Positions 36,780 through 60,767 of a stretch of 64,000 nt of DNA are shown here, piece after piece. Each line of letters starts with the position of its first letter. The first letter of the stretch is position 1. Location of the stretch: assembly GCA_047967505.1 (NCBI GenBank), contig CM106538.1. One strand, 5' to 3'. This DNA is from Dipteris shenzhenensis. Taxonomy: Eukaryota. Below the pieces are notes generated by a model. It saw only the letters and a list, made by a program, of their open reading frames with translations, was not told the origin of the DNA and searched no databases. The translations under genes were made by a program, and so were the position numbers.

Positions 36780-38628
36780 TTGAGAGAAACAAGATGCCTT
36801 TGTATAACAAAAAGCAGCCCGGGCAGCTAAAAATACAAAACGCACATAAAAATATGTAAGAGACATTGCAAAAATACATGCTCAACAATAGTTCTTATAG
36901 AGAAATGTTTGCATAAAAGATTCCAGACACCACTTGATTCCCAATGTTGAAGACATTACCCTAGCCATCCATCTCTTTCTCTATGAGGAATGTTTTTGAT
37001 TTTGAGCACAGCACCAATAATAATCCTCATTATCTTCATTTGTAGGGGACCCTAGTACTGCAAAATGGTCACCCATCTGAAGCATGTCAACCAGCTGGTC
37101 TCTATCCATTGCATATGTTACAGATTCCTTCTCCATGTTTGATGCAGTCTGTCCATTGATGGGCTCCAGCTTGTTCAAGGTCCATGGACTTGCATGAGAT
37201 AAATTGGTGCACTTATCCCATGTTTCATCCATGCAGAATGAACAAAAGCATGACAAATGTCTAAACAAGGCTTGCGTGGGATCTTTGTTACTAAAACCTA
37301 ATATGCAGTGTGTTGAACGACTTCCTTTGATGGTCTGGCAGTTCCATGCTTTAGACCTGTCAACATCACCAACCTTTACTTCTACGAAGAGCCTTTGTTT
37401 AGAATCATCTCCCATCTTCCATGCCAACCATTCCACAACATCGTGTGCATTTTGTAGCTTTGTGCCATTTACATCCAATTGCTCACTGGTTAGTGCACGC
37501 TTTATAATTGCACCAGCCCCATCATGTTCTCCCTTGCCACCATGACCACTTCCAAAAAGTTCCACATCATCCGAATGCTAGTCAAAGAGCAATACCTAGC
37601 ATAACAAACAACAGATATATTGCATTTTAAAATATGCAACATCTTCAGCATGATGTAGAAAATAAGGGGGCAGTGTCCAATGTCTTACCTTGCAACAAAG
37701 TAAAATGGGCGAGCAGCCTTGAACTGAGATGCTGCCCCATCTGACCAAAGCCAGTGTCTTTTAAACTTCAAGCCTTTATACACCAATCATTGATGGTGGA
37801 GCATAAAGCAATGCTGCACAAATAGTGTGTCATGTTCTTTGTCATGTGAAATGTAAAAAATGGATTGCTTTTTTATCTCGCTCGTCTCCTTCCAATAGCA
37901 AATATGAACCAAGATGGTCACTTGGTATGCCAATGCATTGATTGAACCTCATTCTGCACTTTGAATGTATAGTTCTCTGTAGAGTCAACCATTGAAAGCA
38001 CCACATCATCAGGAAAATTTGTGGTGCACTCTTTGAATTGAGAGTGTTGCCAGTAACTACGGAAGTTGTGAGTGATAAACACATTTAAGTGTTGCAAGTA
38101 TTGAGGGATGATGATGGATGGAGGAGTTTCCTTGTATAAGAATTTTATTCTTTTCTTTGCATCATCTTTTCTCGTATCTTCGGTGACATATTCATACGTA
38201 TTCCATCTTATCAATGCACCATTTGCATCATCCAACTCACATGGGCAAAACAATGGTTGTGGGCACTTGTCACATTTGCGTAATAAGCATTCAAGCTTGT
38301 GCCATTTAGCATCCTCTTCCTTTGGCCATACTGCCAAACGCCACATTTTAGACACATAAGAACAACTGCTGGTGTGGGCAACACACGTGTCCTCCCCTTG
38401 GGGCCTACAAACCTTGCATACGCAGTCACACATATGTCCATGCAAAAATGTGCTATTCTGACTCATGGAATTCACTGCTAGTCGGAACAAGTCTATTATT
38501 GTATGGTAAATACAACAAGTATTCCTTTCCTTCAGTTTTTTAATGAAATAGGGCTTCAGATTCTGAAAAGAACGGAAACCAATATCTATGGAAAGATGCT
38601 CCTCCTTGAAATTAAGGAAGAATTTGGC
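36780..38628 (-). mobile_element. Decayed, intron-containing Sola2-like DDD transposase, 5'-truncated
   Basis: Motifs LKPYF...TCCIYH, C..C clusters, VDSTENY, WLWSDGAASQFK and FGSGHG(G)KGEHDGAGAIIKR. In-frame GT-AG intron at 37688-37596 and a further acceptor at 38629. Confidence 0.8.
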
Positions 38629-38700
38629 CTGCAAAATCAATCATCAACAATCAATATTATTTAAACCTAGATAGTAAACAAAAAAAACTATAAACACACT

Positions 38701-38772
38701 ATTCAAAATTTTTGGACTTGTGTAAAGTCCAATTTGAGAAATGGACTAAAAAACAGTCCAAAAATTTTGAAT
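38701..38772. repeat. 72-bp hairpin with perfect 18-bp arms
   Basis: ATTCAAAATTTTTGGACT (38701-38718) pairs with AGTCCAAAAATTTTGAAT (38755-38772). Confidence 0.95.
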
Positions 38773-41700
38773 TACGCAAATGAGAGTAAGAGGGCTTCTT
38801 GCCACTCCATGCCTCTTCAGGAATACCACCATCCAAACTCTTACTAGGTGATCTATTGATCACATGCACTGCGGTCTTCATTGCCTCAGCCCAAAAACCA
38901 CCAGAAAGACTTGCATTGGAAAGCATGCATTGCAACCTTTCTTGAATGGTACGGTTCATCTTTTCTGCAACTGGATTTTGCTCTGGAGTACGAGGGGATG
39001 TGAGCTCCCTCTTAATCCCATGTGTATCACAGAAATGCTGAAAGTCATGAGAGAGATACTCTCCACCATTGTCAGTCCGTAGGCATTTAAGCGTTCTACC
39101 TAACTGATTCTCAACCAAGGCCAGCCATTTTTGAAATACCTGGAACACATCACTCTTCCGAGCTATAGCATAAGCCCACACTTTCCTAGTTGCATCATCA
39201 ATGAATGTCACATAGTATTCAGCCCTGCCTAATGACCGTGTAGGCATGGGACCACATACGTCTGAATGCACCAAATCAAGTATTTCAAACTCTTTCTTTC
39301 CCCTTCTTTTATGGGCTGATTTAGTTTGCTTCCCATAGAGACAATGCTCACAAAATTCAAAATCAGAGAAACTCAAATGCGGTACATAACCCAAACGGCA
39401 TAAGAGTTTCATTCCATTCTGGCTCATGTGCCCCAACCTGCAATGCCACAAAGAAGTGCTTGGCTGCTTGGTTATTGCAACAACATGATCAAATACCCCT
39501 GATACATGTAAGGGATACAAAGTCCCACACCTGGCACCCCTAGCCAAAAGCATAGAGCCCTTTTGAATTTTCCAACTTTGAAAGCCAAAAGTGGTGTGAA
39601 AACCAGCATCATCTAGCTGACCCACTGAAATAAGACTCTTGGTCAGCTTAGGCACATGTCTCACATGTTTCAAAACAAATGCAGACCCATTTGCAAAAGA
39701 AAACTTTATGTCACCTGCTCCCACTATGTCACATGCATAGTCATTTCCAAGATGCACACAACCTGTCTTTCCACTATCATAAGTGGAGAACCATTCCCTA
39801 TGGGGAGTAACATGGAATGAAGCACCAGAATCCAAAATCCAATCCTGGGAATATGCATCATCTGAAGTGGTAAGAAACTCTGCAGATAAACTAGACATGA
39901 AGAGAACGTCATTGTCACTATCATGTGTGTGACTGCATTGATCTCCTCGATCTTCACTTTTCCTTTGTCCTCCCTTGGACTCTCTTCCTTTTGATTTGCA
40001 CCCCAATTTGCATTCTTTTTCTTATCCCTTTGCTCTCTTTTTAGCTTGTAGCAATCCTTTTTCATATGGCCCTTCTTGCCACAGTGGTAACACTCAATGT
40101 TCTGTGCCCTAGATTTGCTACGTGACTTCCCTCTTTCTTGGGACTTCCCCCTGAACTGTGATCTGCCCCTTTGCACATTTAAGGATGCATCCTGCTTGTT
40201 GCCATCCATAGACTTCCGTCTAATCTCCTCGGCCAACAAGCTACCCACAACATCATCAAATTTCAGTACTCCACCAGGTGCAGAGTTACTAACAGCTGTA
40301 CGGAAGGTATCCCATGAGGGTGGCAATGAACATAAGAGAAATATTGCCTTAGTCTCCGCATCAAAATTCATCTTCTGAGCCTGAAGCTGGCTGAAAATAA
40401 TATTGAATTCATTCAAGTGAGAAGAAATGGAGACCCCTTCCTTCATCTGCAGCTCAAACAACCTCTTCATGAGGTAAATTTTATTAGAGGCAGTTTCCTT
40501 CTCATAAGTGGCACATAGTTTCTTCCACAAATCTTTTGTAGTCTACTCATTTACTACTATGAAATAAACTGACTCTACAAGATGAAGTCTAATAGTAGAC
40601 TTTGCTTATGCATCCAACTCATTCCAATCATCCTCAGACATATTTGCAGGCTTAGCTTCAATCCCTGCCAAGGGTTTAATCTGCTTCTTTTGAATAAGCA
40701 CATCCCTTATTTGTTCTTTCCACAAAGAAAAGTTTGTCCCATCAAACTTTTTAATGCTGAAAAACTCCTTTTCAGACGTGGAAGAGGATGCCATGATGCA
40801 AATAAAGCAAAATCCCAAATGCTAGTGCCTCAAGAGAGAATCACACCAAATACCAGGTGCACCCAAATGTATATGCCACAATAGAGTGAAATATCACCAA
40901 AACTCAAAGCTCAAAGCATCAAAAGATGCATCTGACTCATGTGCATATACTATGCATCCATATGAGCAAATCTAGCCCAAAAGAAAATGTCAATAAGTGC
41001 CAAATGACTCAAGCATAAACACTATCCACTGGCATATGCATCAATAATATCTCATCCAAGAGAGCATAGCACTATCAGTGCATCACCTACAATGTGTCAA
41101 AGCTGTCCCTCAACTTAAAATAGCATCCATATGCAAAGCGTCCATAAAAATAGCATCCCACAAGGCAATTTGGGCCTATCAGCGCATCCAATAAGGACCG
41201 CAATGCATCCAAATGGCCTCTAAATCATCCACTGCAACCCAATGCACACCATGAGAATGAGTGCACACTGCTCAAACTGCAACCAGAGTGATCTACATAA
41301 GGTATGCTCAAGAAATCATAGTCCCACGGTAATGAGCGCTACTGAAAATAGAATCTGAGATGCCTCAAAACATGGGTGCCATTGCATAATCGGAATCAGC
41401 AAGAAAATCTGCAAATATCTCTCTTCTGCCAGAACTCCAAAATCCCAACCGATGAGTGAGAAATGGGAGTCAACACTTATCCACTGCCATGTGGCATAAA
41501 TCTAAGGTTTCAAAACCTTAGAATGAAAAATGCATAATAGAGAGACGAAATCAAATACACAGAGATCTATAACTCTGAAAATCCTCCACCGAATCACACA
41601 AGAATTGATAGGTAGGGGTTTTTGGGCGTCCGGAATGCAATGGGACAGACGGTTTTGGAAACCGTGGTCTCAATCACTGGGTCCAACACACGGACTGAAA

Positions 41701-42359: not shown

Positions 42360-44913
42360 GGAGAGAGGGAAGGAGTCTCACTTGAGGCTTTCTCACAAGC
42401 ACAATGGGGGAATATACACAAAGGTGGAGGCTGAAAACAGTTTTCCTCTTCTTAGTTGTGAAAGCCAAAAGAACTCAAGTACAAAGAAATAGAAGAACCC
42501 TATATGTGGGTCTCAAACCAAGCTCAACTAACTAAGGTGGCATACTAACTGAGCCACGAACTAGTGTAGATAAGGATAGCTATCATCCAGCTATTATTCA
42601 TGGGCGGTGTACCAACCGCATCTCCAGCTAACAAGTCGGTGACATAAATACACAACGGTCACCCTGGCATATCGCGAGTGGAGCTCGATATCTCAACACT
42701 CCCCCTCGAGCTCAATCCCAATTCCTGCACACCAAGCACGTCTCTGAACTTGCGTAGCTTCTTTGCACCCAATGCTTTCGTGAATATGTCAGCTACCTGA
42801 TCTTCTGTGCTGACATAAACTAGATCAATAAGACCTAGTAAAACCTTCTCCCCCACATAGTGATAATGCATCTCAATGTGCTTTGTTCTAGCATGAAAGA
42901 CTGGGTTCTTTGCCAAGTGTATGCTCTTCATGTTGTCATAATAAATGACAACTGGCCCATCTGTAGACTGATGCATATCATAGAGTAGCTTATGCAACCA
43001 AGCTACCTCACATGCAGCCATTGCTGCACCCCTGTACTCAGCCTCTGTGCTCGACAAGGCAACTGTAGGCTGTTTCTTGTTGCTCCAAGTGACTGCAGCA
43101 CTCCCAAAAGAGAACACATATCCACTGGTAGATCGTCTATCAGAAATACTACCAGCCCAATTAGCATCAGTGTATCCATGCAACTGTATCTGAACCCCAG
43201 CCTCATAAAATAGTCCATACTGCAATGTGGACTTCACATACCTAAGTATGCATCTAGCCTCGGGGGGGTCACTATGTATAAACCCTCTATATCACGTGCG
43301 TTCAAGGCCTATATTTAAAGTCCCTTATCTGTAAAAAATTTCATTAATAAAATGTACCCCTTTTCTATACAAATCTGTAAATTTTTTCCAAAACTATTTT
43401 AAATAGTCCCTTATGTATATTTATTTCTGTAAATTTTAGAAATAAAAAAAATCCTTCTGTTGAACTCACGTGATAGGGTTACATATGATGAGTGACCTCC
43501 CCGAGCATCTAGCCACATCCAAATGCAGTTTCCTTGGAGCCTGCATAAACTGACTTACCAACCCAACAGCATAGCTCAAATCTGGCTTGGTAATAGTCAT
43601 GTAAATCAAACTTCCTACTATGCGTTTGTACATAGTAGGGTCTTCCAGAAGCTCACCTGCATCTGCGCTCAGCTTCACATTCTGCTCCAAAGGAACTGAA
43701 ATAGGCTTATAGCCTGTCATCCCATATTTGGACAGCATGTCCAGTCCATACTGCCTCTGCAAGAGCTGTATCCCACTTGGTGATCTAATCACCTCAATCC
43801 CCAAGAAATAACGCAGCTCTCCCAAATCCTTCATCTCAAACTTCTGCCTCAATAGCATTTTCACATGAAGGATATCTTCATCACTATCACCTGTGATGAT
43901 CAAATCATCAACATAAATGACAAGCAGCATAATCCCTTTCTCTGTTTTTCTCACATAGAGTGAGAAATCTGCCTTGGAAATCTAAAAGCCAATAGTGACA
44001 AGATACTGTCCTATCTTGTCAGACCATGCTCTAGGTGCTTGCTTCAAGCCATACAAGGCTTTCTTTAACCTGCAAACAAACTTAGGATGAATAGCATGAA
44101 CATAACCTGCTAGCTACTCCATAAAGACCTCTTCTTGCAAATCACCATGCAAGAAGGCATTCTTTACATCCATCTGATGTAAAGACCATCCCTTTCATGC
44201 GGCCATAGCAATGGCTGCTCTTATGGTTGCCATCCTTGCAACCGGGCTGAAAGTTTCTTCATAATCAATGCCATATGTCTGTGCATACCCCTTGACAACT
44301 AATCTTGCCTTGTATCTATTCACAGAACCATCTGCATTGTGCTTGATCTTATAAACCCACTTACAGCCAATTGCATTCTTGTCTTTAGGCAAAGGCACCA
44401 ATTCCCATGTAGCATTTGCATCCAAGGCATCCATTTCTTCATCCATGGCTTTCTCCCATTTTTCATTTCCCATGGCTTGCTCAAAAGAAGTGGGTTCTGG
44501 TTCCTGTATCACTTTGACCATATAGGCATAGTGAATGGCTGTAAATCCATCATATTTCAGCCTATCCACAGGATACCTAACCCTAGTAGACCTATGCAAA
44601 ATAGGCTCACTTCCAGGTGCTCTCAAAACATCCCTGGTCTTCCTTACTCCAGGTGTAACAATAGAAGGAATACCCAACTCATCATCAATGCTCTGCTCTG
44701 AGCCACTGGGTTCACCATCCACATAAGAGTGACTTGCATTCACATCAAACATGGGCTGATCTACCTTCTCTTTTCCTTTTCATGATACCTGTGTACCACT
44801 ATCTGCATTGCTTTGAGGAGATTCTCTTGATCTCAATCTGCCTGTCCATGGTGAAGTATGTGAACCACTGCTAGAGGACACTGCAGGTCCACTGATATTT
44901 TGTGATTGCTGCA
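42360..44913 (-). mobile_element. 3' half of a third copia family (RT, RNase H, PPT, 3' LTR from 42698)
   Basis: Motifs [14 protein letters not shown] and LSSTEAEY. PPT at 42699-42707. The LTR is cut at 42360 by the nested copia. The element is 5'-truncated at ~44913. Confidence 0.95.
43259..43505. mobile_element. 247-bp MITE with ~15-bp TIRs and 8-bp TSD, inserted in copia pol
   Basis: CTCGGGGGGGTCACT ... AGTGACCTCCCCGAG, with CATCTAGC at 43251-43258 and 43506-43513. Removing it restores HLDVARCILRYVK. Confidence 0.95.
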
Positions 44914-45179
44914 CGAGAGTGAGGAAGGTAACTAGAGGAGGTAAGGCAAGATGAAAGGAGTATGCTTGAGAAGAGGAGGCAAGGTTGCGGGCAAGATGGA
45001 AGGAGCAAGCTTGAGGAGAGGAAGGAGCAAGCTTGAGGAGAGGAGTAACGTAAGAAGAGCAAAGTGGAAGAAGTGTTTGCTATAGGAGAGATATAGAAGA
45101 TGAATGACTACTAGGGGATTTATAGAACTACAGACTCATAATGTGGGATGAAAGATTTAGAATAAAGAATTGGTAGAGG

Positions 45180-45720
45180 CTGAGATGACCAGATGCAAGA
45201 CCGTAATGCGAGACATGTGAGACATGTAAGATAGTGAGTACATTGAAATCTATAAAATAAAATGATGGGATGCAAGACCGTAATGGGAGACATTTGAGAC
45301 ATGTAAGATAGTGATAGTACATTGAAATCTATAAAATAAAATGATGGAACACAAGAATGATATAATTAATAGAATCTCATCATGAGATATTCTTTTAATA
45401 TAACATAAGTTAGTAATTATTAGAATCTCATCATGAGATATTCTTTTAATATAATATAAGTTAGACTTGCTGATGCAAGACCGTAATGCGAGACATGTGA
45501 GATGATAGATTTTGAGTACATTGAGATCTATAAAATAAAGTGATGGAACATAAGAATGATATAATTATTAGATTCTCATCATAAGATATTTATTGCACAT
45601 AATAAATGATAGATTTTGAGTACATTGAAATCTATAAAATAAAGTGATCGAACATAAGAATGATATAATTATTAGATTCTCATCATAAGATATTTATTGT
45701 ACATAATAAATTAGACTTTC
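45180..45720. repeat. AT-rich composite tandem repeats
   Basis: TGCAAGACCGTAATG.GAGACAT, GTACATTGA.ATCTATAAAATAAA and ATTAGA.TCTCATCAT.AGATATT each recur several times. Confidence 0.85.
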
Positions 45721-45839
45721 AAAAAAGTAAAACCTAATGTATTGTAATGAATAAATATCATAAAATATCCTAATGTATTGCAACATTTAACATAAGTTTA
45801 AAAAACACTATCATTAATCAATACAAAAAAGATAAAGTT

Positions 45840-48100
45840 CTTCAAGGACTCATGTTTCTTTCTACATGTTTTACAACTGAATAGAGTCTGATGAGTCCTC
45901 TTGAGGCTATGATTCTCTAAGAGTACATTGAATCTCTACTTGTGTGGATGGTGTACATTGAGATTCTACTTCTGGTGCAATCAGGATAGACTTAATCTCT
46001 TCCTCCTTTACAAGATGTGATGTTGTAGATGCACATTGAGTCTCCACTTCTTGTGTAGGAAGAATGCATTGAGTCTCTAATTCAAGTGTAGACTGTAATG
46101 CTTCTACTTGAGGCTGTGATACAGAAGGAGACTGAATTGTCTCTTGTTTTTCTTTGGCTCCCTCAGGTTCTTCATTGAGTCCATCATGTTGTTTCCCAAT
46201 GGTAGCAGTTAGATAGTGAACAGTCTTAGCCACAAAATCTTGTAGCTCGAGCTTGGTATATGCTTCTATTGAGACATGTTCAAAAATTTCATTGAGATAC
46301 AACATGAAGTTGTAGGCAATTCTCCACCCACTACTAAACATGTCTTTCTACTCCACTGTGAGGCGTGTCTAGAAATTTGGTTGGTCTTGATGCTCCCTGA
46401 TTTTCATAATCGCAAAAACTAACTTGTTTGCAGACCTGTCCATCATGACATATGACAAAGTGAATTTGTGTAGTAAATAGTAAGATGCATGTTCATAATG
46501 ATATGATAAAAGAACACTTACCTGAACACCCTGTGAAAGCCTGTAAATGAGTTGACAAACCAACAATGGTTGTCATCAAGATCCCATACTATCAGGCTCC
46601 AATGTGAACTACATTACCAATAAAGAGCGATAAGATTTATCACAATATTAAGTATCAATTGACACAATATTATAAATAAGAGAGTAAAAGAAAGATTGAG
46701 ACGATACTTACTTCTCATAGTATGGCATAAAGACAACTAGTATGCCATCCAAGTCTAAAGGTTGTAGAATTGAACAAACATCATCTACTGTCTTCTTGGT
46801 ATCACTAAGTACAGCTGAAAGAAGAGAATCGAGCATACAGACATGATTCTGTACTGATCTAGGAAAGTGAGATATAACCGTATTGCAGCAATAAATAAAC
46901 AAATATTAGAAGCAGATTGAATCAAATGATTGAAGTATCAAGCCAAGAGATGTTCATATCAAACCTGAGGATGGCCATCATGACTTTGTCATTAGCCTCT
47001 TTCAAAGGGTCGGAGAGGATTGTAACTTCCTCGCTACCAAAAGTCAAAACACGAGGTTGCTTGCTAATGATGACCCTAACCTCAAAAGAGCTCCCCATTT
47101 CGTCCAATACAGCGGTTACATTAGGACAACTTATGGGTGTAGCAACCAATGTTTCCTCTGGATGCTCCACCATGTTATCAATAAATGCCTTAATGATAGA
47201 TGACATAAATGCATATGGATGCAAGTCTGTATATGTCGACAATGAGGTTTCACCGCCTCTCTAATTAAAAATTTGAGCAAGGAGCAAAAAGCAGTTATAT
47301 CCGACTCTCCACCCACAACTGTGGTCATCATTCTGCTTCACTGCAGGGCATGTTACATACTCTATTTGATCTTCTAAGTCACCCTCCATTTGCATAAGTG
47401 CATCTATAGCACCTACCAACTTTCGAGCAGATCTACACATCAAAATAGAAAACATAAATGAATGTGCGCATTGCATAGGATGCATCTCATTGACATAATT
47501 ATGACACAAGTAGGTTATACTTACTCTGACACACTGCCATGGATAGATGCTATTGAATTGACAAAGAAGCATTGCTTGGCTAAGATGTCCACAATTACCA
47601 AGCTCCAATGCAAGCTGCATTATCAATTAAGAATAATTATTATTTGATATAATCCTCCACAATGTAAGGGATAAGCTAGGTAGGGATTGATACTCACTCC
47701 TCGTGATATGCAATAAAGATAACTCGCGCCGCAGTCAAATCAATAGGTTGCAACCACTTAAAAACATCATCTATGGTCTTCTGCTTATTGCTAAGTACAC
47801 TAGAAACAAGAGGATCGACCATATATGCACATCTTTGTATATATAGGGGAAGCTGTTGTAAAACCATACTGCAATAAAAAGAAAAGAATATTAGTTGATT
47901 TGATCCAATGGAAATACAAAAGATAAAGTCAGTAAAAAGTTTGTGTCAAACCTGAGGATGGCTATTATGACCTTGTCATTAACCTCTTTCTTGAAGTTTA
48001 TAAGGATTGAAATGTCCTCTTCATCGAATAGAAAAGTAAGAGGTTGTTCTCGAACTTGAAATGACTTCTCCATTTGCTGCAAGGTATGATTATTTTCTAG
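45840..48100 (-). pseudogene. Two tandem Ulp1/C48-like cysteine-protease domains (3' exons of a multi-exon gene)
   Basis: Repeat 1: EVNDKVI, LHWSLVIVD (HW 47610-47605), FVNS and KQNDDHSCGW (Cys 47317-47315). Repeat 2: EANDKVM, SHWSLIVWD (HW 46604-46599), FVNS and KDMFSSGW. GT donors lie at matching positions: 47951/46964, 47697/46711 and 47524/46521. Confidence 0.8.
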
Positions 48101-48305
48101 AGTCATCCGATGGATAGCCAGAGTAGCTTTGCTTTCTTGAGATGAGCTTTCTATATTCTCTACTCTAGCTATGTCCTCCTCCTCCTCCTCCTCTCCCTTC
48201 TCCTATAAAAGGATAAAATAATTATGAGATTCAAAATTTTAAATTAATTATAAATTTAAAAAGACCTTTGAATGAATAAAGAAAATTAAACATAAGTTTT
48301 CATAC

Positions 48306-49480
48306 CTCTACATATCTTCGTGGTCTTTTTATGTAACCTTGAGAGGCAAGGTCAGTGTCATATCCATCTTCTTCTGCTTCCTTGCTATCACTGGTGTCCT
48401 CACTATTATATCTAGAGCTTTGAACATTTTCATCATCTTTCTTGCTCTCATCATACATGATCATCTCTATGTCAGCATCCTCTTCATGTGAGATCGAACC
48501 TTTCTTATCAAACTTTATTGTGAGAGAAGCCATGGTATCAAGGTATTCCAAGCAAGCAGGGCTCTCAATAATATTTACATTTGTCCTTTTCTGATAAGAG
48601 CTTCAAACAAATGTCCCATTCGACACAATGTGACTTCCCATCTGGACGGTAGCAAAAATTCCATCATACTAATTAAAAGATCAACACTTTTTGCTGGCCT
48701 TTCATAGTGATTTGTGTTGCGATGGAGGGGACTTGGAGCTTCATGCTCTTCCAGCAGTAGTTGCAATCTCTTTGCATTCCCTCTTATATTGTTTTGTAAG
48801 GAGTGATCATTGTAAGGGCTCTTCATGCACAAGAAAAAGGTTTCTAGACTCTGTATCTTGAGACCGCATTCTCTCTTGTCCCTTTTTCTTGAGTATATAC
48901 CATTGTAAATCTTAAGCTCATTGCCATATTGTTTTTCTAGGGTAGCAGACATTTGTTCCTTGTCATCTTTATCAGCAAATATGATAATATTACATTGTCC
49001 CACTCTACCAATGGTGGTATGTAATATTCTGTCAAGGAGTTGACGAATGTCATCCGGTGATATTTCATAGACAAAGAAAAGCTGAGGTCTCTCCCAAGCA
49101 GTGTCGTCGGACAAAAAATCATTCATCAATGAAACTCCCTTGCACTCAACACTCTTTCCAGACTCTGAAATGATTTCATGTATGAAAAAAAAGCCCTTGT
49201 TCAAAGTTTTTTCTTTTCTGAGAGTGTGCTTATTTATGACTTTTTGTGCATATGCATAGACATTTTCCGGAATGTCACTTCTCATAGAGGGAGTAATTTC
49301 AGATCTATCATCTTCTACCTTCACCCATTTATGCACCCAAGCCTTCTGTTTAGCTGACGGTAAAGCTGATGCCATCTACCTCACAATGTTATGATCAATT
49401 TTACATTGGCTAATTGGAATATTTTTTTCTGCCAATAAATATTCAATTGCACTCTTTACTGCATCACGCTTGACCTGTTG
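48306..49480 (-). pseudogene. Long exon encoding a possible degenerate beta-class N6A/N4C DNA-methyltransferase-like domain plus acidic linker, upstream of the Ulp1 exons
   Basis: ORF 48575-49375 extends upstream past one TAG and downstream through a frameshift into NVNIIESPACLEYL. Donor at 48305 and acceptor near 48203 link it toward the Ulp1 exons. The domain call is a by-eye pattern only. Confidence 0.45.
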
Positions 49481-49580
49481 GATGATGCATACGGTTGTTA
49501 TTGGTTAGTGTCTAATTGAATTTTCAAACAAGTTTTAGATTTTTAAATCATTAATAAAGTAGATTATTGAGAAGAGACTA

Positions 49581-50315
49581 ATGTTCTTTATAATGGTTGT
49601 TACAGCTTGTTCGCAAAGGAAACGCACAAAGGAGATGGCTACAAAATTTATTCCGGGGATGGAGGTGATTTTATGTTGCAAAAGAGAAGTAGTTGCATTT
49701 GCTACAATCCATGAAAGTGATCCAAATTCTATTTGTCACTTTAGAAGACTTGGCGAAGATAAGGTGGCGGTTATCGTATCAAGGATTCTTAGTGCACATG
49801 TTGAGCTAAAGCATAAGTGTGGGGATATGGAAATCCTTGGAGATGTTATGCCCTATAATACTTCCAACAAAGCATTTATTGCATGGGACAGAGATGAGAC
49901 TTATCCAACACATGTCATCAGGAATACAAAGTGCATATCTTTGGATTTTAGAGTGGGAGATATTTTACAAATGTTATCATTTGCAAATAAGTATGTAGCA
50001 GAAGGTCAAGTCTTGGGATTTGAACAAGTTGAACATTGGACATTTGCGCAGATGAGAATTCAAAAAGTTACTGATGATGGTATGGATGATAACTCAATGT
50101 CATTGGATGGTCCCTACTATGAGGTAGGTAAGGATTTGAGATGGAGCATGCAATTTTTAAATATTGGAAAGACTCGGCATGTGGTTTTTAATGATAAACA
50201 TAATGTATACTACAACATCAAAGAATTGAAAGAATATGCCAATGTACCAAGCTCTATTCCTTCAAAGATGCATGATTCCAATGCACTCAACTATAGCACT
50301 GACGTCTTATCATAA
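49581..50315 (+). CDS. TNP1/En/Spm-like accessory domain ORF, N-terminal part of Sola1-like copy C
   Basis: GMEVIL...VAFATIHESDP..CHF..LG....V.V..I.....L......LGD......IAW pattern. Clear paralogue of ORF 57998-58498. Confidence 0.6.
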   Translation: MFFIMVVTACSQRKRTKEMATKFIPGMEVILCCKREVVAFATIHESDPNSICHFRRLGEDKVAVIVSRILSAHVELKHKCGDMEILGDVMPYNTSNKAFIAWDRDETYPTHVIRNTKCISLDFRVGDILQMLSFANKYVAEGQVLGFEQVEHWTFAQMRIQKVTDDGMDDNSMSLDGPYYEVGKDLRWSMQFLNIGKTRHVVFNDKHNVYYNIKELKEYANVPSSIPSKMHDSNALNYSTDVLS

Positions 50316-50336
50316 GTCGATGGGGGCACAAGGGAT

Positions 50337-50650
50337 TTGATGTGTTGCATCGAGTTGAAGCTTCAACTCGATGCAAAACATCAAGCTGGATCCTAAACTT
50401 GATGTAAAACATCAAGTTGAAGGTTCAATTTGATGTTTTGCATCAAGCTGAAGCCTCAAGTTCATGTAAAAACATCACAATTTTGAAGGTTAAACTTGAT
50501 GCAAAACATCAAATTAAAGCTCAGAATTGATGTAAAAAATCAGGTTCAAGGTTCAATTTGATGTTTTGTATAAGTGAAAGTCTAGACTTGATGTAAAACA
50601 TTGAATTTGATGTTTAAGATAAAGTTAAAGCTTAAACTTGAAGTCCAAAC
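50337..50650. repeat. ~29-bp minisatellite in mixed orientations, starting with a 48-bp near-perfect palindrome
   Basis: 50337-50384 is centred on AAGCTT with one mismatch. Units resemble AACTTGATG(C/T)AAAACATCAAGTT. Confidence 0.9.
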
Positions 50651-52562
50651 TCAATGAACATAATATTCAATTGCAAACTTTGTTTCATAGTTTGATTTCT
50701 CTATGGACTTTCCGTCGTCCACCATCAAATGACATTTCTAGTTCCAACGTATTTAACATGCCCCCTTTCTTGTTGTCAATCCAATCCCCTAGATCATGCA
50801 AAGGGAATGGTTGTTACTGTAGATCATTCCTTTTGTGCCCTTGTGGAAACCTTCCCTATCGGCATTGCTTGATAGGGTGCTAGTGGATCGAATCTATTAA
50901 GGAATTCTTGCTAGGGAGGATGGATATTTCATCTAGTGATGTGGTAGTCCCAGCATTGAATTCCATTGTAATTGGCATTGCATAGCATGAATGATTGCAA
51001 TGGCTAGACGTTGTGTGGATGGATTGGAGCTGAATACTTGTGACCTTTCAAAGTTATACAAACAAAAAGAAAAAGATAAACCTAAGGTGTAAGCTTAGTA
51101 GGAAGAAGGTGCTGGTAGCGATGGATGTAAGAGCTTAACTGTGGTGTTAGTGTTAGCGAAGTAGGTACCACTGTATTATCATGATTTTCTCTAAGTTGAA
51201 TCGGATCCATATTGGACTCTTATCAGACTATATATATCTTTAATATGCCATGTTTGGATGTTTGGAGTTGTGCTAGAAATTTTCTCTTGCTTCTCTGCAT
51301 ACTAAGTTCTTTTAAAATCCATTTTATGGATAGCAATTCATTAAGGGATTTTGTTTTATTATTATTTTTTAGCACAATAGGGTTGTGGCACCATTTATAC
51401 TTTATTAAAGTTTATTTGTCTGAATCATCAAATACATAGGAGTCTGACAATACACCATGCAAACTCCTAGAATGAGGACTATGGCTGAAGAGGTTCTTGG
51501 ATTCTAGGAAATTCCTTTAAGTTAAAATTTATATTACATTTGGAGGCTCAAATGGTTGATTGGGTACTAGCATAAAGTAGGAAATTTTTTAAAAATAATA
51601 ATAAGACAAAAAATAAAAGAGGAGGGAGATTTGGAGTTAGCTACAAAGGTTGGGGTTAGTAAATGAAAGGGACAAAAGCTTTGAGGATCACAAGAAACTC
51701 ATCTAAACCCATTTTGATGTCAGAAAACTTCACCCTACAATCAAACTCATCCCTTGGAGCTATTGGTGTACTACCACTTTGTGTTCCATATGTGTAGGAG
51801 TCACTTGGGGCACTAGGATTTAATATGTCTTTGACTTCCTAGACCCTGATGAAGTAATTAGGGTTGGATACCCTTTGTTAGTCACGATTTTCTTTCCATG
51901 GTAGCAACATTTTGTTAAGGTCTCTATGTTCTTGTGGATCTACTCCATTGTTAAGAGTGATTCTTATGGGTCTACTCCTATGGAGTTGGATGGAATTCCA
52001 CCTTGAAGGAGTGGTTTTTGTATTTCCTCATGGGAAAACCCATCAAGGCCTTGAACTATCATTGCCTTTGCCTTTGTGGACAACTATCATTGCCTTTGCC
52101 TTTGTGGACCCTGCAATAGGTTCTTGTGTCACTACTCCATTTTAAGGAGCAGGTTCTTGTGTAACTACTACCAGTGCATTCTTTGTTGTTGGTATTTTTT
52201 GTTCAAGCTTTTAGGGTCTCGACTCAGCCTATTATGTCTATAGAGTGATGAAGTTGCCTTTGAGGCAAACAAGAGAAGGTGGGCTGCTGTGTTGATGAGG
52301 CTAGGGTTCACTTTTGAGTGTTGCCATTGTAATATCCTTGAGCTTGTCACAATTCCTTTCTAATCCCAATTTCTTGTGCCTTTGACACAATTCGTTCTTG
52401 ATCCCAACTTCTTGTGCCTTTGTCAATTACATCCTCTTGCATTTTTCTAATTCATTGTATCAGCGTAATAAAGTGATATATGTTCTTTGTAGCAAATGTG
52501 ATTAGGACCTCAATGTCTTGGAGATTTTCTATTTTTGTTGAGCCCAAGTTGCTTCTAAGAAA

Positions 52563-53600
52563 TACAATGGATGACTTGATAAGAAAATGTGGGAGGCAAG
52601 TTGGTGGCCATAAGGAAGGTACAGTATGCTCCATGATTATAAGAACAATATGATTGGAAGAGCTTTATTCTACCTTTCATACAAAAAGGTGGTGATGCCC
52701 CGATTGGTCATAGCACTCCACACTACTTTTGCTTTTTCTTAAAGGATGAAAAACCAGTGATGCAGTGGCAACACTATTCTAATGATACAACATGGGAACC
52801 CAAAGAACCTTACTATCTCTTAACTTCAATTTCGAGCAAAGAAATGCATCCAGTATGGGCTTCTATAAAATCATTTAACGAGAAATCCAAAGGTCAAATA
52901 GAAGGCTTAAAATCTTTTAGTACATACAAAGAGGAAATGCTTCGTAGATTTCCTAATTGGAAGCCCTCTTGGAAGGAACATATTGCTATTGTAATTAAGA
53001 AGACCTATCAATTGATAAAGGACCTTGAGAAAATTTATAAGGCAAAACGGCCTTTATTTTGGCCAAATGTTGGTAATGACTTGCACCCATCGTTTGATGT
53101 CTTTGTTAATGAGTTTGAATCACTACTTCCACGTCCATATTGTGGACCAAAGAAGAGAGAGTTTATGCCAAAAGTAGACATAGACATCCATTGTTTTGTT
53201 GCAGTTTGACCATTCGACGATGAGCATGAGAATGTTAAGTTCTGGGTTGCAAAAGTGGTGGACGTGAGCATGGATGACCAGGGAAAAGGTGCAACATTTA
53301 CAACACTATGGTATGATCCAAGGAGTAGGAAGGAGAACCAGGATAACAATACACTTTATATTGGTTGTTTGAAAAAGGAATGGATCCCAAACCATGATGC
53401 AATTTCAGAGCTTTCCATGAAGACAGTCATAATATCCTAGAAATCAAGGACAAAGAAAACAAGGAAGCACATGGGGTATGATGTAGAAGAAAAAATAAGA
53501 ATACCGCTACCAATTATTTTGTACATTACGAAGTTTTTGAAGATGCTCGCTAAGGAGGAAGTAGAAGGAGATAGTGCAAATGAAGAATGCCCATGACAAT
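52563..53600 (+). mobile_element. C-terminal half of Sola1-like transposase copy C, catalytic core missing
   Basis: IGHSTPHYF...PVMQWQHYS and LLPRPYCG...FVAV...FWVAKV...LWYDP align with copy B (IGHTNPHYF, PVMQWKHYS, LLPRKYCG, IWVAKV, LWYEP). Confidence 0.8.
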
Positions 53601-54210
53601 ACCATTCAAGCATCAATAAAAACTCGAGATGATGGTCTTCTGACGAGATTGAATGAGGATGGCATCCAAGCAACAAGTGACGATGAATTGGACATTCAAG
53701 CAAGCAAGTGTCAGGATCTCCCATTTGTACTTAACACATCTGTAAAGGCAAAATTGAGTTATTTTAAAAAGACTACAAGTCAGACTCCTTTGTACAAAGA
53801 CTCATTGAGAGCAATATTTCTTGTAAACATATGACAATGTAAAATTGCAAGCATAGCTATTACTATTTTTGGAGCACATTTAAAGAGTCTTCCATGTCTC
53901 TTGTCTATTTAAACCTTTGAATTTTTTGGGACTTCAAGAGTGTTATTGTTTTCTACATCAAAATTTAAGTGCATTCTTTTGGGTTTAGTTATATTAATAA
54001 GTCTTTATTTTGAAAGTGATTTTTCATGGATTTAAATTAATAACTCGTGATTTTTTTTTAATGTGAATAGGATTGCCAAAAACAAGAAGTATAAAAGTAG
54101 GATTTAATTGAATTTTTTGCAATTATTAGTGCACCATTATAGAGACAGATTGTAAAATTTATTATGTGGAAATGATAGTGCCAAAACCTGAACTTTTGAT
54201 TCTTGAATGA

Positions 54211-54680
54211 TATTTTCATGAAGTAAACTTTTCATTTGGGAACAATTTTTGGGATTAGTCCAAAAGTAGACATATGAGTCCAAAATTAATAAAATAAGTG
54301 TTTGGCATCCTTGTGTTTTAGCTCTCTTGAGACTATGCTAAAAACCTAATAGATATCCTCATCTGTGTGTCCAACCAACATAAACCCAACTTCAATCTCA
54401 TTGAAGATTAATCAATGAGCAATTAGCATTGAGCAAAATGCAAAAAAGAGTACATTCTTATTCTCTCGTCCGCAATTGTCTGCCTGTATTCTTAAATTTG
54501 CTGGTAGGTTACCTTTTTTAGCATGTACACTATGAATTGCCTTCATAACGGCGGACGCTACAACTTGATTGCTATTATGTAGATGCAAACACTTATTTCA
54601 TTAATTTTGGACTCATATGTCTACATTTGGACTAATCCTAAAACTCCTTCGCAAATGGAAAGTTTACTTTATGAAAATGT
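54211..54680. repeat. ~100-bp inverted repeat pair (54211-54309 / 54582-54680)
   Basis: GATTAGTCCAAAAGTAGACATATGAGTCCAAAATTAAT pairs with ATTAATTTTGGACTCATATGTCTACATTTGGACTAATC. Confidence 0.9.
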
Positions 54681-55149
54681 TGTTCTAGGGTTTATCGTAT
54701 GGTACCACGTGAGTGTAAGGGAGGGGGGTTATATAAGGGAAGGAAGGTACATTTTATAAGGTAAGGTCCCATAAATAGGGAGTAGATAAGGGAAATTTTC
54801 ATATATTTAATGCACGCAGGTGACGTCTCCTTATTACTACTAGTGAATCTCCCATGGGTGCCCCCATCCAATAACTATAAAAATAATAATAGTAGTCTCC
54901 TAACTCTAGTTCAATTTTAACACTATGAAGTGAAAATATGACACCATATGAAAAGAGTTTATTGAATTCAACATATAAGTGGTATATAGATACACCATTT
55001 TTTTGAAAAAAAAGAGTTTGTTGAATTCAATATATAAGTGGTGTATAGATACACCCTTTTTTTGAAAAACAAAGCATACAATACATTATCTTATTGGTAA
55101 TGTATAGATACACCATTTGTATGGAAAAAAGCATACAAAACATTATCTT

Positions 55150-58100
55150 ATGCATCTAAATCTCGTTCAGAGTCATCAGATTCATGTAATGTATTTGCGC
55201 TTGATGGGTCAAGACTTGCCAAATGATGTTTAATATGGACACGACTTGGATCAGGGATTGTGATACATTTTTCAACATTGTATCCATGCTTCTTTTTAAA
55301 ACTTCGTGTCCTCAATTTAGATAGCAATGAATAATTCTACTGACTTCCACCTCTGTTAATCCCTCATTATTTGGAACTCATTCATGTTTCTTTTGCAAGC
55401 ATCCCTCATAGAGTTGTTTTATTGTATATCTTCTTAGGAGATTTTTCAATGGCTTTGGTTCATACCATAAAGCTATGAATGTTATAGGAGTTCCCTTGTC
55501 ATCCCTTTCTATCTTAGCAACCTTTGCAACCCAAATTGGGACACCTTGGTCATCCAACTCTGAACCTGGGTCAATACCTGGGTCAAATGCCCAAACTGCA
55601 ACAAATAGACCCTCTTCAATCTCATTAGATGGTATAAACTCTGGTAAGGGTTTGTCTCCCTTCCTGCCACAATATTTTCGAGGTAAAAGGCATTCCTCTG
55701 CTTCCTCCATATCTATCAACATATTTATATCCAAAGGAAAACTTGGTGACCTAGCTTGTTCTAGCCAAAAGGATTCACAGTATTCAATGCTCATTAAGTT
55801 TTCTTGTCTTTCTAAAGATTGGATAAGTGCTTCGGTTGATTTAATTGTCTCCAAATTCTTAGTTGATTACTCAGGATATTTCTACATCATACTTTGAATA
55901 TGTTTAATGAAGGCTTTCAAGCCTTTCATTTCGTCTATGTCAAGTGATTTGTTTTTTGCAAGAACAAATCTAGTTTTCTCCAATGGAATCATTTGTTGTA
56001 ATAAAGCATATGACTCACTCCATAAATGATCTCCATCTACTGAGTAGTGCTTCCATTGCATCACTGGAATATTGTTATGCATGTGAAACCGAAAGTAGTG
56101 TGGATTTGTGTGTCCTATTAGGACATCATCTCCTATTTGTAAATGTGGCTCTATGAATGCTCTTCAATCTACCGTCCTCTCTAAGATAGCCACTTCTGAT
56201 TCTTCCTTGCAAGACCCTCCAATTTTTTTCCCAATTTGAAATAGCATATCCTCCATTGTCAAAACATCCATTGACTTCAACTCACTAGAGATAACACTGA
56301 AGATTTAATCTATGTCTTCATGTGTATGGCCGACAAGAAGAAAGCCAACTTCCACTTCTTCAAATATTTTCAAACCAACCAGCATAGAGCATAAAGTAAA
56401 AATAAATTTATTCTTGTTCTCTCTCCAACAATTATCAGCTTTGTATTCGCAATGTGTTAGGTAAACATTCGTAAGCATCTTTGACCTTTCTTATTGCTTT
56501 CATGATTGATGTAACAACCTGGTTACTATCATGGTCATGGAAACTATCAATCCATACATCACAAAAGATTCGGTATCCATGTACTAATACTCCACACAAG
56601 TGTGTTTTTAGTCCATGTTTGCCCTCCAATGCTGGTGGGATACATCTATATCATGGCAAAGGTTGCATTTATAGTGCTTCCATGGCATTTAAGTTTGTAG
56701 GTATTTCCATGAATTGTATGAACCACTTTTTCTTTCACCTCTACCCAGATGGTCCAGTATGTGCCATGTGATAGTCCAGTTAACCATTGATATCCTCGAT
56801 TGCAAATGGGTCTCCCATTAACCATGGGTTTCAATCTAGGTTTACCGTGTCTTGTGCTCAAATCTTAATCACTGCCTTGATCAAGAAAGCATGAAAACTC
56901 TTGAAGAAAATAGTTATATCTATTAGGCGCTGTCTTACTCCAAATACCAAGGCGTATGGCTGCACAATCATCTTTCCCAACTTTTCTAATACAAAGTCTC
57001 TTGCAACAAACTCGCATAAGCATCCTTTCCATATTCTCCTCTCATAACATTACATGTCTCTTTGGTTCTGGAATTGATGCCATGATTCTTCGCCTCTTCA
57101 CACATACTTTCTTTTTGTGAATAGTGTCTTGCATTTTCCAGTTGTAAGACCATCAAACCTCGAATCCATTTCCCTTGAATCTTCATCTCTATAATCAAAT
57201 GCTGTGTGGGTTTGAGAATTATTTGATGCCTTATAATATCTTGGAAATGGCAATTTGGTAAACATGTTCATTGATGTCAATTTGTTGCCAATGCCTCTTG
57301 AATTTTGTGACTGAACTCTTTCTCCTTCGTAACTCAAGATTGTCCCATCTATATTCTCTGGCATGCTAGCAACAATATTACAAACAACATGACAAGTCAC
57401 AGATTCTCTGCCCACTTTGCCCTGCATTTGAGTGGTAACATCATGATCATTGTCACTAATATCATCAATTCGTGTTATTGCATCACTTATCCCATCGATC
57501 TTTGAGTGTATTTTTTTTTGTGGTCCCATATTATTATTCTCAACACAAGACAAGTCTTCTATATCAGTAAGCACGTTTGAGTCACTTGCAACACAGGACA
57601 AGTCTTCTATACTAGTGAGCCTGTTCGAGTCACTTGCAGCACAGGACAAGTCTTCTATACCAGTGAGCCTGTTTGAGTCACTTGCAACATAGGACAAGTC
57701 TTCTATACCAGTGAGCCTATTCGAGTCACTTGCAACACAAGACAAGTCTTCTATACCAGTGAGTATATTTGAGTCACTTGCAACATAAGAGACATTTTCT
57801 ACATCAACATCTGTTACTATAATGTCCTCAGTACCTGTGAGCATGCCACTATGATACTCTTGATCACTACTATAGCTTCCTATCAATTTGGATTCCATTT
57901 GTATTATAGTCCTTTTCTTCTGATAATATTCTGTTGTGTCTTCCATGACATTGAAGGAAACTATCTTGGGCAAACTTGATTTCAAGAAAGCTAACCTTCA
58001 TTTACAAGTACTATGAACTTGTAGATGAGAGTCCGTAGTATTATGGACATCTATATGTGAAGTACTATCCATTGCATTTTGAATGACACCTGCACTAGTC

Positions 58101-58514
58101 AACTTAATTATCTCCACTATACAGAGAAAACTTTGAGCATAGCCCTTAAAGTTACCAATTGCTAAAACTTCTCTGGAGCAAGATAACATCTCTACTTTTT
58201 TCCCCTCAAAATAAATTTTCTTGATATCTTGAAAGTATGTCTTTGGAACAATTTCGTCTTGGTCCCAGAGCATTCTGTGTGCTTGCATATCAAATATGTC
58301 ACATTGTAAGATATCTCCCAATGTTTCAAAGTCTCCATGTGGATATTTTAAATGTACTTTAGGATTTACAACGTTGGTGATTATCACTACACATCTTCTC
58401 TCACCACAACATTGGAAATGACACACATTCATAGGATCAAGACTATGAATTCGTCCAAAAGCCACCGCTTCATTCTTCTTATATAACACCACATCCATAC
58501 CCTAAACTCCTAAA
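55150..58514 (-). mobile_element. Decayed Sola1-like (DUF7869-type) transposase gene, copy B
   Basis: Order: TNP1-like domain (57998-58498), 16-aa repeats, Cys-rich region, ADNCWRENKN (~56439-56410), GFLLVGHTHEDID* (~56346-56305), then the C-terminal IWVAKV...LWYEP domain. The DGMDQ region appears deleted near 56670. The 5' end is cut at 58514. Confidence 0.82.
57540..57790 (-). repeat. 48-bp in-frame coding minisatellite, 5 copies (SDSNRLTGIEDLSCVA)
   Basis: GAGTCACTTGCA occurs at 57579, 57627, 57675, 57723 and 57771. Confidence 0.95.
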
Positions 58515-60767
58515 CATATGCACATGTGCCAAAAGAGCTTCGAAAGAAGCTAGATCCTAAGTCTAGGAAATGCATCTTTCTGGGTTATGGTGAAAGTGGA
58601 GAGATGGGCTATCGTCTCTGGGATCCAGAAGCAAAGAAGATCATACGCAGCCATGATGTGGTCTTCAAAGAAAAGAAGATGCATAAGGCACCCATGAGGG
58701 ATGTGGAAATGAGGAGAATCACTTTCCAGGATGTGAATCCACCTACCTATGTTGATAGACAGCAAGCTGTCCATGCACCAAATGTGCAAGAAATGGTACC
58801 ACCAAGTACTCCCACAGGTATACAATCAAGGGTAGATGATGGATCATCTATTGGTGGAAATGATGAGCCAAATGTGGCTGATATGCAAGTGGGACAGCAA
58901 GCTGAAATGCCCTTGAGAAGATCATCTAGAGTGTCTAGACCGCCTGATAGGTTTGTTCCAGGGGTAGACTATGTGATGCTTACTGATTGCGGGGAGCCTT
59001 CTTGCTATAGAGAGGCTATGATGCGTGAGGATCAACGCAAGTGGGAGTATGCTAGGCAATCAGAGATGAGTTCACTTATGAAGAATAAGACTTGGGACTT
59101 GGTTTCTTTGCCACATGGAAAGAAAGCATTGCCATGTAAATGGGTCTACAAAATGAAGGTCACAGGTGATGATGTGCCTAGGTACAAGGCCCGTTTGGTT
59201 GCTAAAGGGTTCAAGCAAGAGAAGGGTGTGGACTTTGATGAGATATTCTCTTCAGTTGTGAAGATGATCACACTTAGATGCATGCTTGGACTAGTGGCAT
59301 CAGCAAATATGGAGCTTATGCAGATGGATGTCAAGACAGCTCTCTTGCATGGGGATTTGCATGAGGAAATTTACATGGTGCAGCCGAAAGGCTTTGAAGA
59401 AAAGGGCAAAGAGCATTTAGTTTGCAAGCTAAAGAAGAGTCTCTATGGTCTTAAGCAAGCACCTAGAGAATGGTATCAGAAGTTTGATGCTTTCATTCGG
59501 TCCCAGGGTTTTAGAAGGAGTGAAATTGATCACTGCCTCTACACTAAAAGGGCTAAGGATAATAGCCTGATAATCTTGGCACTATATGTGGATGATATGC
59601 TATTGGCTAGCAAGAATACTTATGAGCTAGATGCTTTAAAGGCCAAGTTGCATGAGGCCTTTGATATGAAGGATTTGGGACTTGCAGGTCATATTCTTGG
59701 TATGCGCATCACGCGTGATCGGAGTAGGAAACTCCTTTGGCTTTCACAAAAAGAGTATGTTACAAAAGTATTACAGCGTTTCAATATGGAGGGGGGGAAG
59801 GCAGTGAGTACTCCATTGCCTCCATATGTGAAACTGAGTCATACAGATAGTCCCAAATCAGATGAGGAGAGGGCCATGATGGCCAAGGTTCCTTATGCAT
59901 CAGCAGTTGGGAGTCTTATGTATGCTATGATAGCTACTAGACCAGACATTGCATTTGCAGTGGAAGTTGTTTGCCGGTATATGGCTAATCCAAGAAAGAG
60001 GCATTGGGAGGCAGTTAAGTGCATCATGAGGTACATGAAGGGTACCAAGGAGATGTGCATTTGCTTTGGTAAAGGAGACATGCGTGTACTTGGGTACACA
60101 GATTCAGACTATGCAGGGCATGTGGATAGTAGGAGATCCACTTCCGGTTATGTGTTTACCTTTGCAGGTGGTGCAGTGTCGTGGATGTCTTGCGGACAGA
60201 AGTGCATTGCTTTGTCTACCACAGAGGCTGAGTATGTTGCAGCCACAGAGGGTTGCAAGGAGGCTATATGGCTTGATCGGCTAATGGGAGATTTGGGGAT
60301 TCATACAGGTGTACCGACATTGCATGGTGATTCCATGAGTGCTATTCAGCTAGCATGGAATCCGGTCTTTCATGCAAAGACCAAACACATTGAGGTCAGG
60401 TACCATTTCATCAAGGAGGTACTTGAGGACAAGCGCATAGAGCTTGTCAAGGTTCATACTGATGATAACCCTGCAGATATGCTGACGAAGAGTCTACCTA
60501 GTCAGCGGTTTGAGTATTGTCGTGTATTGATGGGCATTGGATAGTATGCTCACTGGTTGTTCTCCTTAAAGGCACATTGTCCTTTAAGTGGGAGGTTGTG
60601 GGGGTTAAAGATCACTGTGCCTTTACCCCGGTTATGTACAATACTCAAACACATATATAAATGAATGAAAAAGAAGATTAGGGTGGTTCTGCACCCACCA
60701 AAACTTGTGTGGCTCTTTGTTTCTCTCTCTCCCTCTTCCGTTCTTGCTTCCGTTGAGAGCACTCTCA
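58515..60767 (+). mobile_element. 3' half of a Ty1/copia element (integrase C-terminus, RT, RNase H in an open 672-codon frame; PPT; 3' LTR 60597-60767)
   Basis: Motifs KLDPKSRKCIFLGY, LPCKWVYK, QMDVKTA, LYVDD and LSTTEAEY. PPT AAGTGGGAG at 60586-60594. The LTR matches 42234-42359. Confidence 0.97.

Follow-up and report, generated by a model that had tools for sequence, protein, structure and literature searches.

Two decayed copies of a putative DUF7869 transposase gene with a probable TNP1-like N-terminal domain in Dipteris shenzhenensis

Does the interval between positions 44914 and 58514 of a 64,000-nucleotide stretch of Dipteris shenzhenensis DNA (assembly GCA_047967505.1, contig CM106538.1) represent one large transposon family with cargo, or does it hold remnants of separate elements? 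An initial annotation had proposed the former, describing Sola1-like transposase copies joined to a CACTA-type accessory domain and accompanied by a methyltransferase-like (MTase-like)/Ulp1 gene. We analyzed the whole stretch, which is eukaryotic and repeat-rich and is referred to as the window, including its 980 open reading frames (ORFs) of at least 35 amino acids (aa). The data favor, with moderate confidence, the view that the interval contains two pseudogene copies that diverged long ago and belong to a rare family of cut-and-paste transposases whose core is the DUF7869 domain. In the following, copy B denotes the minus-strand copy at 58.5–55.4 kb, copy C the plus-strand copy beside the neighboring gene and copy A a further copy at 14.3–17.0 kb.

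Architecture of the DUF7869 gene copies

Copy B comprises the following parts, all of which lie in order, on one strand and within 3.1 kb.

55381–58501, minus strand: copy B, a transposase pseudogene of nearly full length, truncated at the 5' end (Pfam matches, frame counts)
58244–58501, minus strand: N-terminal TNP1-like domain, with a second conserved stretch to 58070
57541–57785, minus strand: 48-bp (16-aa) tandem repeat in the middle region (Tandem Repeats Finder)
56308–56650, minus strand: DUF7869 core (PF25273, 79.3 and 39.4 bits)
55885–56304, minus strand: post-core segment
55381–55866, minus strand: C-terminal domain

Copy B represents a single long gene, largely free of introns, that is now decayed. 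The first 467 codons share one frame with one stop and the last 370 codons lie in another frame with four stops, the frame being mixed between these parts; in total, five in-frame stops were counted in 837 codons, along with at least two frame changes. The ATG (58498) is located 13 nt from the edge of a Copia fragment at 58515, and therefore the region upstream of copy B is gone. The 48-bp repeat (5.1 copies, 90% matches) resides inside the reading frame.

The N-terminal ORF of copy B (58001–58501, minus strand) aligned in BLASTP searches of the window's ORFs with an ORF on the opposite strand (49563–50312, plus strand), exhibiting 33.3% identity over 150 aa (E 1e-21). In the alignment, 58 columns are invariant, among them V, L, VAF, IH, DP, CHF, GE, VI, LK, GD, LGD and WD, and the N-terminal pattern that had been described at both places is thereby borne out. 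A family profile built on this domain matched only these two of the 980 ORFs (E 2e-76 and 6e-59; next best E 0.26), so copy A lacks the N-terminal domain. The extra N-terminal part of copies B and C consists of a domain of ~85 aa and ~55 further conserved residues.

PF25273 (DUF7869; curated cut-off 26 bits) was matched above its cut-off in the interval on the minus strand only, at 56308–56490 (79.3 bits), 56438–56650 (39.4 bits) and 54415–54597 (50.4 bits), and the 25 ORFs on the plus strand from 49563 to 54032 gave no match. The core carries the motifs ADNC...NKN and, in copy B, GHTHEDID, the latter appearing as GHT-EDI in the core block of the second copy. We read the DUF7869 core as an RNase H-like DDE/DDD transposase, in which ADNC...NKN and GHT..ED would represent the first two acidic motifs. 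The C-terminal regions of copies B and C also match each other (38.5% identity over 96 aa, E 7e-16; 35.5% over 155 aa, E 2e-16) and end in a short FW-AK-V block, which is common to copies A, B and C. Hence, the single layout ascribed to copies B and C in the initial annotation holds for the N-terminal and C-terminal regions, but the core is not confined to copy B as stated there, because the third DUF7869 piece (54415–54597) goes together with the C-terminal block of the plus-strand copy.

14316–16970, plus strand: copy A, a third DUF7869 copy (15467–15856 at 128 bits; C-terminal domain 16107–16970)

DUF7869 proteins including copy A have the core motifs and the C-terminal FW-AK-V domain in common with copies B and C. 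Copy A differs in lacking the N-terminal domain; copies B and C belong together on a rare branch of their own. Their common architecture is real and characterizes a rare DUF7869 branch, apparently not described before, whose transposases have an additional, probably TNP1-like domain at the N-terminus; a literature search retrieved no paper mentioning DUF7869 or PF25273. About 2 kb upstream of copy A lies an ORF with weak kinase-type matches (APH 22.7 bits, cut-off 23.2; Pkinase 19.6 bits; region 13064–16970, plus strand), which may be captured sequence.

When 1.84 billion representative proteins were searched with a profile, 15 relatives of the N-terminal domain were returned, all of 54–267 aa, and those looked up derive from short Logan, ENA or NCBI contigs. 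The search also drew in the tandem-domain proteins P0010 (E 5e-6) and P0013 (E 1e-5), each of which carries the domain twice, and an alignment search (E 2e-15) added P0016 with three tandem copies. In the database fragments P0007 and P0015, the N-terminal domain runs without a stop into the same middle region as in copy B, which argues for one undivided reading frame in live relatives. A word-based homologue search with the copy-B N-terminal ORF gave no match, and two pattern scans of metagenome contigs (283 and 94 pattern stretches) yielded zero confirmed copies. P0016 measures 476 aa and is encoded on a public ENA contig of 10 kb; its three TNP1-like domains are followed by a basic stretch and a Cys-rich tail. 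Its precomputed Pfam label PF26133.1 was neither reproduced nor named. The Cys-rich tail matched none of the window's ORFs, and a link between P0016 and DUF7869 remains a lead.

Comparison of the N-terminal domain with TNP1/En/Spm and of the core with Sola

The initial annotation had compared the N-terminal domain with the TNP1/En/Spm family of plant CACTA accessory proteins. When scanned against Pfam, the copy-B ORF had PF03017 (TNP1/En/Spm) as its sole match, with 17.0 bits and E 0.005 over profile positions 8–65 of 66, the curated cut-off being 21 bits. PF03017 was likewise the best or only weak match of four of the 15 relatives (P0005, P0006, P0013 and P0014; 13.9–15.5 bits), and the matches of copy B and these four relatives span profile positions 8–13 to 53–65. 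Two of them, P0013 and P0014, are just 29–34% identical to the window's domain and yet weakly match PF03017. The proposed likeness is thus weak, consisting in sub-threshold matches that do not extend to the plus-strand ORF. From these profile matches it appears fairly likely that the N-terminal domain is a true remote homologue of TNP1/En/Spm, though it is no member of the family by Pfam's standard.

PF03017 (Transposase_23) is among the domains listed for the CACTA/Mirage/Chapaev superfamily (PMC5751038). The likeness to the domain of plant CACTA elements consists in a similar pattern over ~58 of 66 profile positions, whereas the scores obtained here differ in falling below the cut-off. Moreover, in CACTA elements TNP1 sits in a separate accessory protein, whereas here the domain fronts the transposase of another superfamily. 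Among the 157 ORFs on either strand of 44.7–58.5 kb, there was no match to Transposase_21, Transposase_24 or another CACTA transposase family, and the N-terminal domain is therefore unlikely to be part of a separate CACTA insertion, which the initial annotation had named as speaking against its own proposal.

Three further sources were set aside. The best Foldseek match to the domain model, the PUA-like heads of RsmE methyltransferases (E 0.2, TM-score 0.27), and the protein Atlas rows, which held generic beta-propeller fragments only, were not used. An hhalign comparison of two alignments was discarded because sequences common to both confounded it.

The equation of DUF7869 with Sola1, made in the initial annotation, is treated here as an assumption. 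Sola transposons (Sola1 group, Bao et al. 2009) are described as having a DDD transposase, 4-bp target-site duplications and inverted termini of 11–1124 bp (PMC10741241). They are reported from the moss Physcomitrella and as rare in flowering plants, with elements of 2–9 kb or more (PMC10741241, PMC4455052). The family described here resembles Sola as a eukaryotic cut-and-paste transposase with an acidic-triad core, and the reported element size fits a transposase gene of more than 3 kb. It differs in that no 4-bp duplication or inverted termini were found, both copies being truncated or rearranged. To our knowledge, a TNP1-like domain at the N-terminus has not been reported for Sola, and a literature search using DUF7869, PF25273 and PF03017 retrieved no paper on such a domain in Sola.

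The split second copy, the interval ends and the neighboring gene

The second copy is split in three blocks and not simply deleted.

49563–50312, plus strand: N-terminal block, an open frame of 250 codons with ATGs at 49582 and 49635
50323–52563, no strand assigned: filler in place of the middle region and core (no Pfam match on either strand, no tblastn match to copy-B ORFs)
50348–50564, within the filler: 31-bp palindromic tandem array, 6.9 copies
52564–53437, plus strand: C-terminal block with the end of the core region, post-core segment and FW-AK-V domain (tblastn with copy-B ORFs)
54307–54597, minus strand: core block, a DUF7869 fragment with ADNC...NKN and GHT-EDI (PF25273, 50.4 bits, profile positions 34–86 of 192)
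54202–54304 and 54586–54688: arms of an inverted repeat around the core block (103 nt, 87% complementary; blastn 90% over 98 nt)

When the copy-B ORFs were compared with the window by tblastn, blocks were returned at 49656–50099 (plus strand), 54588–54307 (minus strand) and 52564–53377 (plus strand). The N-terminal block contains the TNP1-like domain at 49656–49907 and the second conserved stretch up to 50099. Matches in the C-terminal block cover 52564–52650, 52658–52942 and 52991–53377; the frame changes once near 52650 and is interrupted by one stop at 53207–53209. The core block has two in-frame stops and is inverted relative to the C-terminal block that it should precede. A single copy-B ORF (56167–56304) spans both of these blocks, its aa 1–13 aligning with 54345–54307 (minus strand) and its aa 16–45 with 52564–52650 (plus strand); therefore, the core and C-terminal blocks are adjacent pieces of one gene, colinear to about two codons. 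Independently, of the other public sequencing runs designated X1 to X4, two (X1 and X2) have contigs with the pieces joined: 52564 is linked on opposite strands both to 54308 (X1; shorter side of 222 letters) and to 54415 (X1 and X2; shorter side of 115 letters in X2). The simplest account would be a single inversion of 52564–54307 within a minus-strand gene standing in tandem with copy B, in which case the N-terminal block (49563–50312) would be a separate fragment.

The N-terminal ORF of the second copy is 94.7% identical over 243 aa to P0001, a complete ORF on a separate public contig of 992 nt, and contigs of runs X1 and X2 match 49685–50322, their matches ending at 50322. Possibly, this ORF is retained as a small protein in its own right or as a first exon, similar to a separate accessory protein. 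The 31-bp array begins 33 bp past the stop codon of this ORF, near the end of the contig matches at 50322, and can form hairpins since its units are palindromic. Run X1 has next to no cover across 50313–52115.

The interval is bordered on both sides by Copia fragments, and its limits at 44914 and 58514, as given in the initial annotation, are therefore Copia edges.

42659–44900, minus strand: left flank, a 5'-truncated Copia-type retrotransposon fragment (reverse transcriptase/RNase H part), outside the finding
58515–60544, plus strand: right flank, a 5'-truncated Copia fragment (RVT_2 249 bits, SH3_retrovirus 76 bits)

The ORFs of the left fragment are 34–43% identical to the RVT_2-bearing ORF at 58514–60541 (BLASTP), and the fragment is matched up to ~44900 by many contigs of other sequencing runs. 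On the right side, contigs of runs X2, X3 and X4 begin to match exactly at 58515 and have differing sequence before.

Neither copy, nor the stretch 44914–54300, was found to be bounded by inverted repeats in a repeat search and by blastn. The best inverted pair across 44914–54300 comprised 26 nt at 77% (45593–45618 with 54146–54171), and blastn with word size 9 found nothing. Target-site duplications were not found either; the copies are truncated or rearranged, so the ends may simply be lost. An inverted pair of 23 nt (50307–50329 with 54858–54880, 78%) was rejected as termini, its flanks lacking a duplication and contigs running through to 50322. The left end at 44914 is the edge of the Copia fragment and the right end at ~54300 is the inversion breakpoint (54304–54308) inside the transposase gene. 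For lack of paired termini and duplications, the suggestion that 44914 to ~54300 is one deleted element with an Ulp1 accessory gene is not upheld.

Head to head with the N-terminal block of the second copy lies a gene on the opposite strand.

45910–49375, minus strand: neighboring multi-exon gene or pseudogene with a first ORF of 266 aa and two tandem three-exon modules
48578–49375, minus strand: first ORF, 266 aa, no known family, ATG at 49375
47264–48202 and 45910–47260, minus strand: the three-exon modules, diverged tandem copies
45192–45711, no strand assigned: compound tandem repeats past the 3' end of the gene (units of 77, 51 and 104 bp; Tandem Repeats Finder, 94–97% matches)

The two modules share 48% identity over 52 aa and 41% over 64 aa, amounting to 36–48% protein identity overall, and at the DNA level 68% over 307 nt at a spacing of ~986 bp (blastn). 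The initial annotation had placed the start of this gene ~130 bp from copy C on the opposite strand. The head-to-head arrangement is confirmed, but the gap measures 187 bp (49375 to 49563) or 259 bp (to the ATG at 49635). Similarly, the starts had been assigned to apparent splice acceptors: AG does precede all three ORF starts, but each ORF has its own ATG (49375, 49635 and 58498), and an acceptor is one possible reading.

No search gave support for Ulp1 identity. None of the 31 minus-strand ORFs of the gene reached any Pfam family cut-off, and none matched Peptidase_C48 (PF02902), not even at E ≤ 1, although these ORFs were scanned exon by exon and a spliced product might still pass. Searches of the PDB at E ≤ 10 with the exons revealed no protease. 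For the 266-aa ORF, neither Pfam, the PDB, homologue searches nor the Atlas lent support to a methyltransferase, and the MTase-like label accordingly has no family, homologue or solved relative behind it. The Atlas rows for this ORF, Sec1-like at low recognition, were not used, and an AlphaFold model of the exon with the Cys-Gly block, based on a single sequence, was useless (pLDDT 44.3). By eye, module 1 contains Gln...Ser-Cys-Gly and no clear Asp, and module 2 contains an Asp-Arg-Ser block with Ser at the would-be Cys. The order of conserved blocks and the Gln...Cys-Gly block recall, again by eye, the Ulp1/C48 layout.

Among the matches listed, a contig of 3577 letters of run X1 matches 48125–49489 and no further. 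As this match stops at 49489, the sequence upstream of the neighboring gene appears to be different in the X1 copy. The notion of a large cargo-carrying element is unsupported. The gene can be likened, as a repeat-borne gene beside a transposase, to the ULP genes of plant MULEs (Kaonashi), CACTA elements and animal Ginger1 (PMC13317346, PMC2528002, PMC2836005). It differs from these in having no match to the C48 family or a solved structure, and each of its two modules seems to miss one catalytic residue. Since ULP domains are known inside MULE, CACTA and Ginger1 elements, a repeat-borne ULP-like gene is not new in itself. On balance, we take the two-module gene to be a separate repeat unit of unknown family.

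Several other repeats were recorded in the window. Tandem repeats of 57–59 bp separate the core block from the 3' end of copy B and may be 3' subterminal repeats of this copy.

54951–55151, no strand assigned: 57–59-bp tandem repeats, 86–92% matches

Two Copia integrase fragments (29773–30348 and 58514–58756, both plus strand) share 88% identity over 81 aa, and for this reason the same Copia family is represented at least twice in the window. Finally, two ORFs of 198 and 240 aa at 36981–38640 (minus strand) have no Pfam family and adjoin a Copia gag-integrase ORF (38699–40542); they may belong to another unclassified mobile-element gene.

Weighing of the alternatives and implications

A number of observations weigh against our interpretation. 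Regarding the N-terminal domain, no sequence passed the PF03017 cut-off, and the plus-strand ORF, P0001 and P0016 had no PF03017 match in Pfam scans at all. The AlphaFold model of the domain, calculated with 14 sequences, was poor (pLDDT 60.9), and Foldseek retrieved no match for it at E ≤ 0.001. No protein with both the N-terminal domain and DUF7869 was present among the 15 representatives found, so that the gene order of copy B is the sole evidence for their fusion. The functions suggested below for the N-terminal and C-terminal domains are conjectural, and mobility as a unit is presumed, as no element termini were found. As to the split, an assembly error in the window could account for the inversion in the second copy, or the joined contigs could stem from paralogues. 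The N- and C-terminal blocks are on the same strand and 2.9 kb apart, as compared to 2.2 kb in copy B, which fits one plus-strand copy, rearranged in a more complex way, equally well.

The lack of matches above cut-off leaves room for the idea that the N-terminal domain has no relation to TNP1/En/Spm and is a beta domain specific to its lineage, its Pfam likeness reflecting chance or the convergence of a small barrel-like pattern while the rest of our interpretation stays the same. This is possible but doubtful: 13 of the 18 family sequences scanned had no PF03017 match, including the plus-strand ORF and the three-domain protein P0016, the Atlas yielded nothing but generic beta-propeller fragments and the fold search no significant match, but PF03017 recurs over the same profile span, and it does so in the distant sequences P0013 and P0014 as well as in close ones. 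One could also argue that the N-terminal ORFs are independent CACTA-type insertions that landed beside DUF7869 genes, in keeping with the listing of PF03017 for the CACTA/Mirage/Chapaev superfamily (PMC5751038). We consider this highly improbable, given the absence of CACTA transposase families among the ORFs of the interval. Furthermore, the N-terminal ORF of copy B and the next 299 codons form one frame with a single stop, and two copies that are just 33% identical keep order and strand.

A different explanation concerns the interval as a whole, namely that 44914 to ~54300 is one large, internally deleted Sola1-like transposon, whose transposase and Ulp1-type genes diverge from a shared short promoter region. 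The head-to-head genes, 187–259 bp apart, would suit such an element; both are covered by contigs of another small run and so seem to recur elsewhere, MULE, CACTA and Ginger1 transposons have repeatedly been found to contain ULP-type domains (PMC13317346, PMC2528002, PMC2836005), and Sola elements can exceed 15 kb (PMC10741241). However, the ends are unpaired, no better than 26 nt at 77%, and coincide with a Copia edge on the left and with a breakpoint within the transposase gene on the right. The upstream neighbor of the gene differs in the X1 contig, none of the 31 ORFs matched Peptidase_C48 and no SENP/Ulp1 chain emerged from the PDB searches, all of which makes this explanation improbable. 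We rather regard the interval 44914–58514 as pieced together from dead repeat fragments, with a truncated Copia element on either side, and not as one transposon, a view that we hold with reasonable though not high confidence.

How the intact ancestor of copies B and C may have worked can be sketched from its domains. The N-terminal domain would have bound the element's own terminal or subterminal DNA, the core would have cut and pasted the element and the C-terminal domain might have helped to tether or target the transposase. More speculatively, and with less confidence than the reading of the two copies themselves, a streptophyte or alga-like lineage could possess an undescribed, possibly Sola-type, DUF7869 branch, whose transposase took up a CACTA TNP1-type domain for DNA recognition of its own, in some cases with the domain doubled or tripled in tandem (P0010, P0013, P0016). 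An end-binding module would then have passed from one superfamily to another. Taken to its extreme, this tentative scenario would make the two-module protease-like gene a co-mobilized accessory.

The locus is ordinary repeat debris: one copy has decayed, the other is split by an inversion and the repeat gene next to them is unrelated. In itself the locus has no functional importance because both copies are dead. For annotation, its value is that a rare transposase branch is recognized, that an apparent deleted element turns out to be a gene split by an inversion, and that a gene adjoining a transposase fragment in repeat debris is no evidence of cargo. What emerges is a modestly novel transposase variant. 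If its N-terminal module is a true relative of TNP1, DNA-binding or accessory modules would have been exchanged between unrelated cut-and-paste superfamilies, and the little-studied DUF7869 transposases would gain a candidate end-recognition domain.

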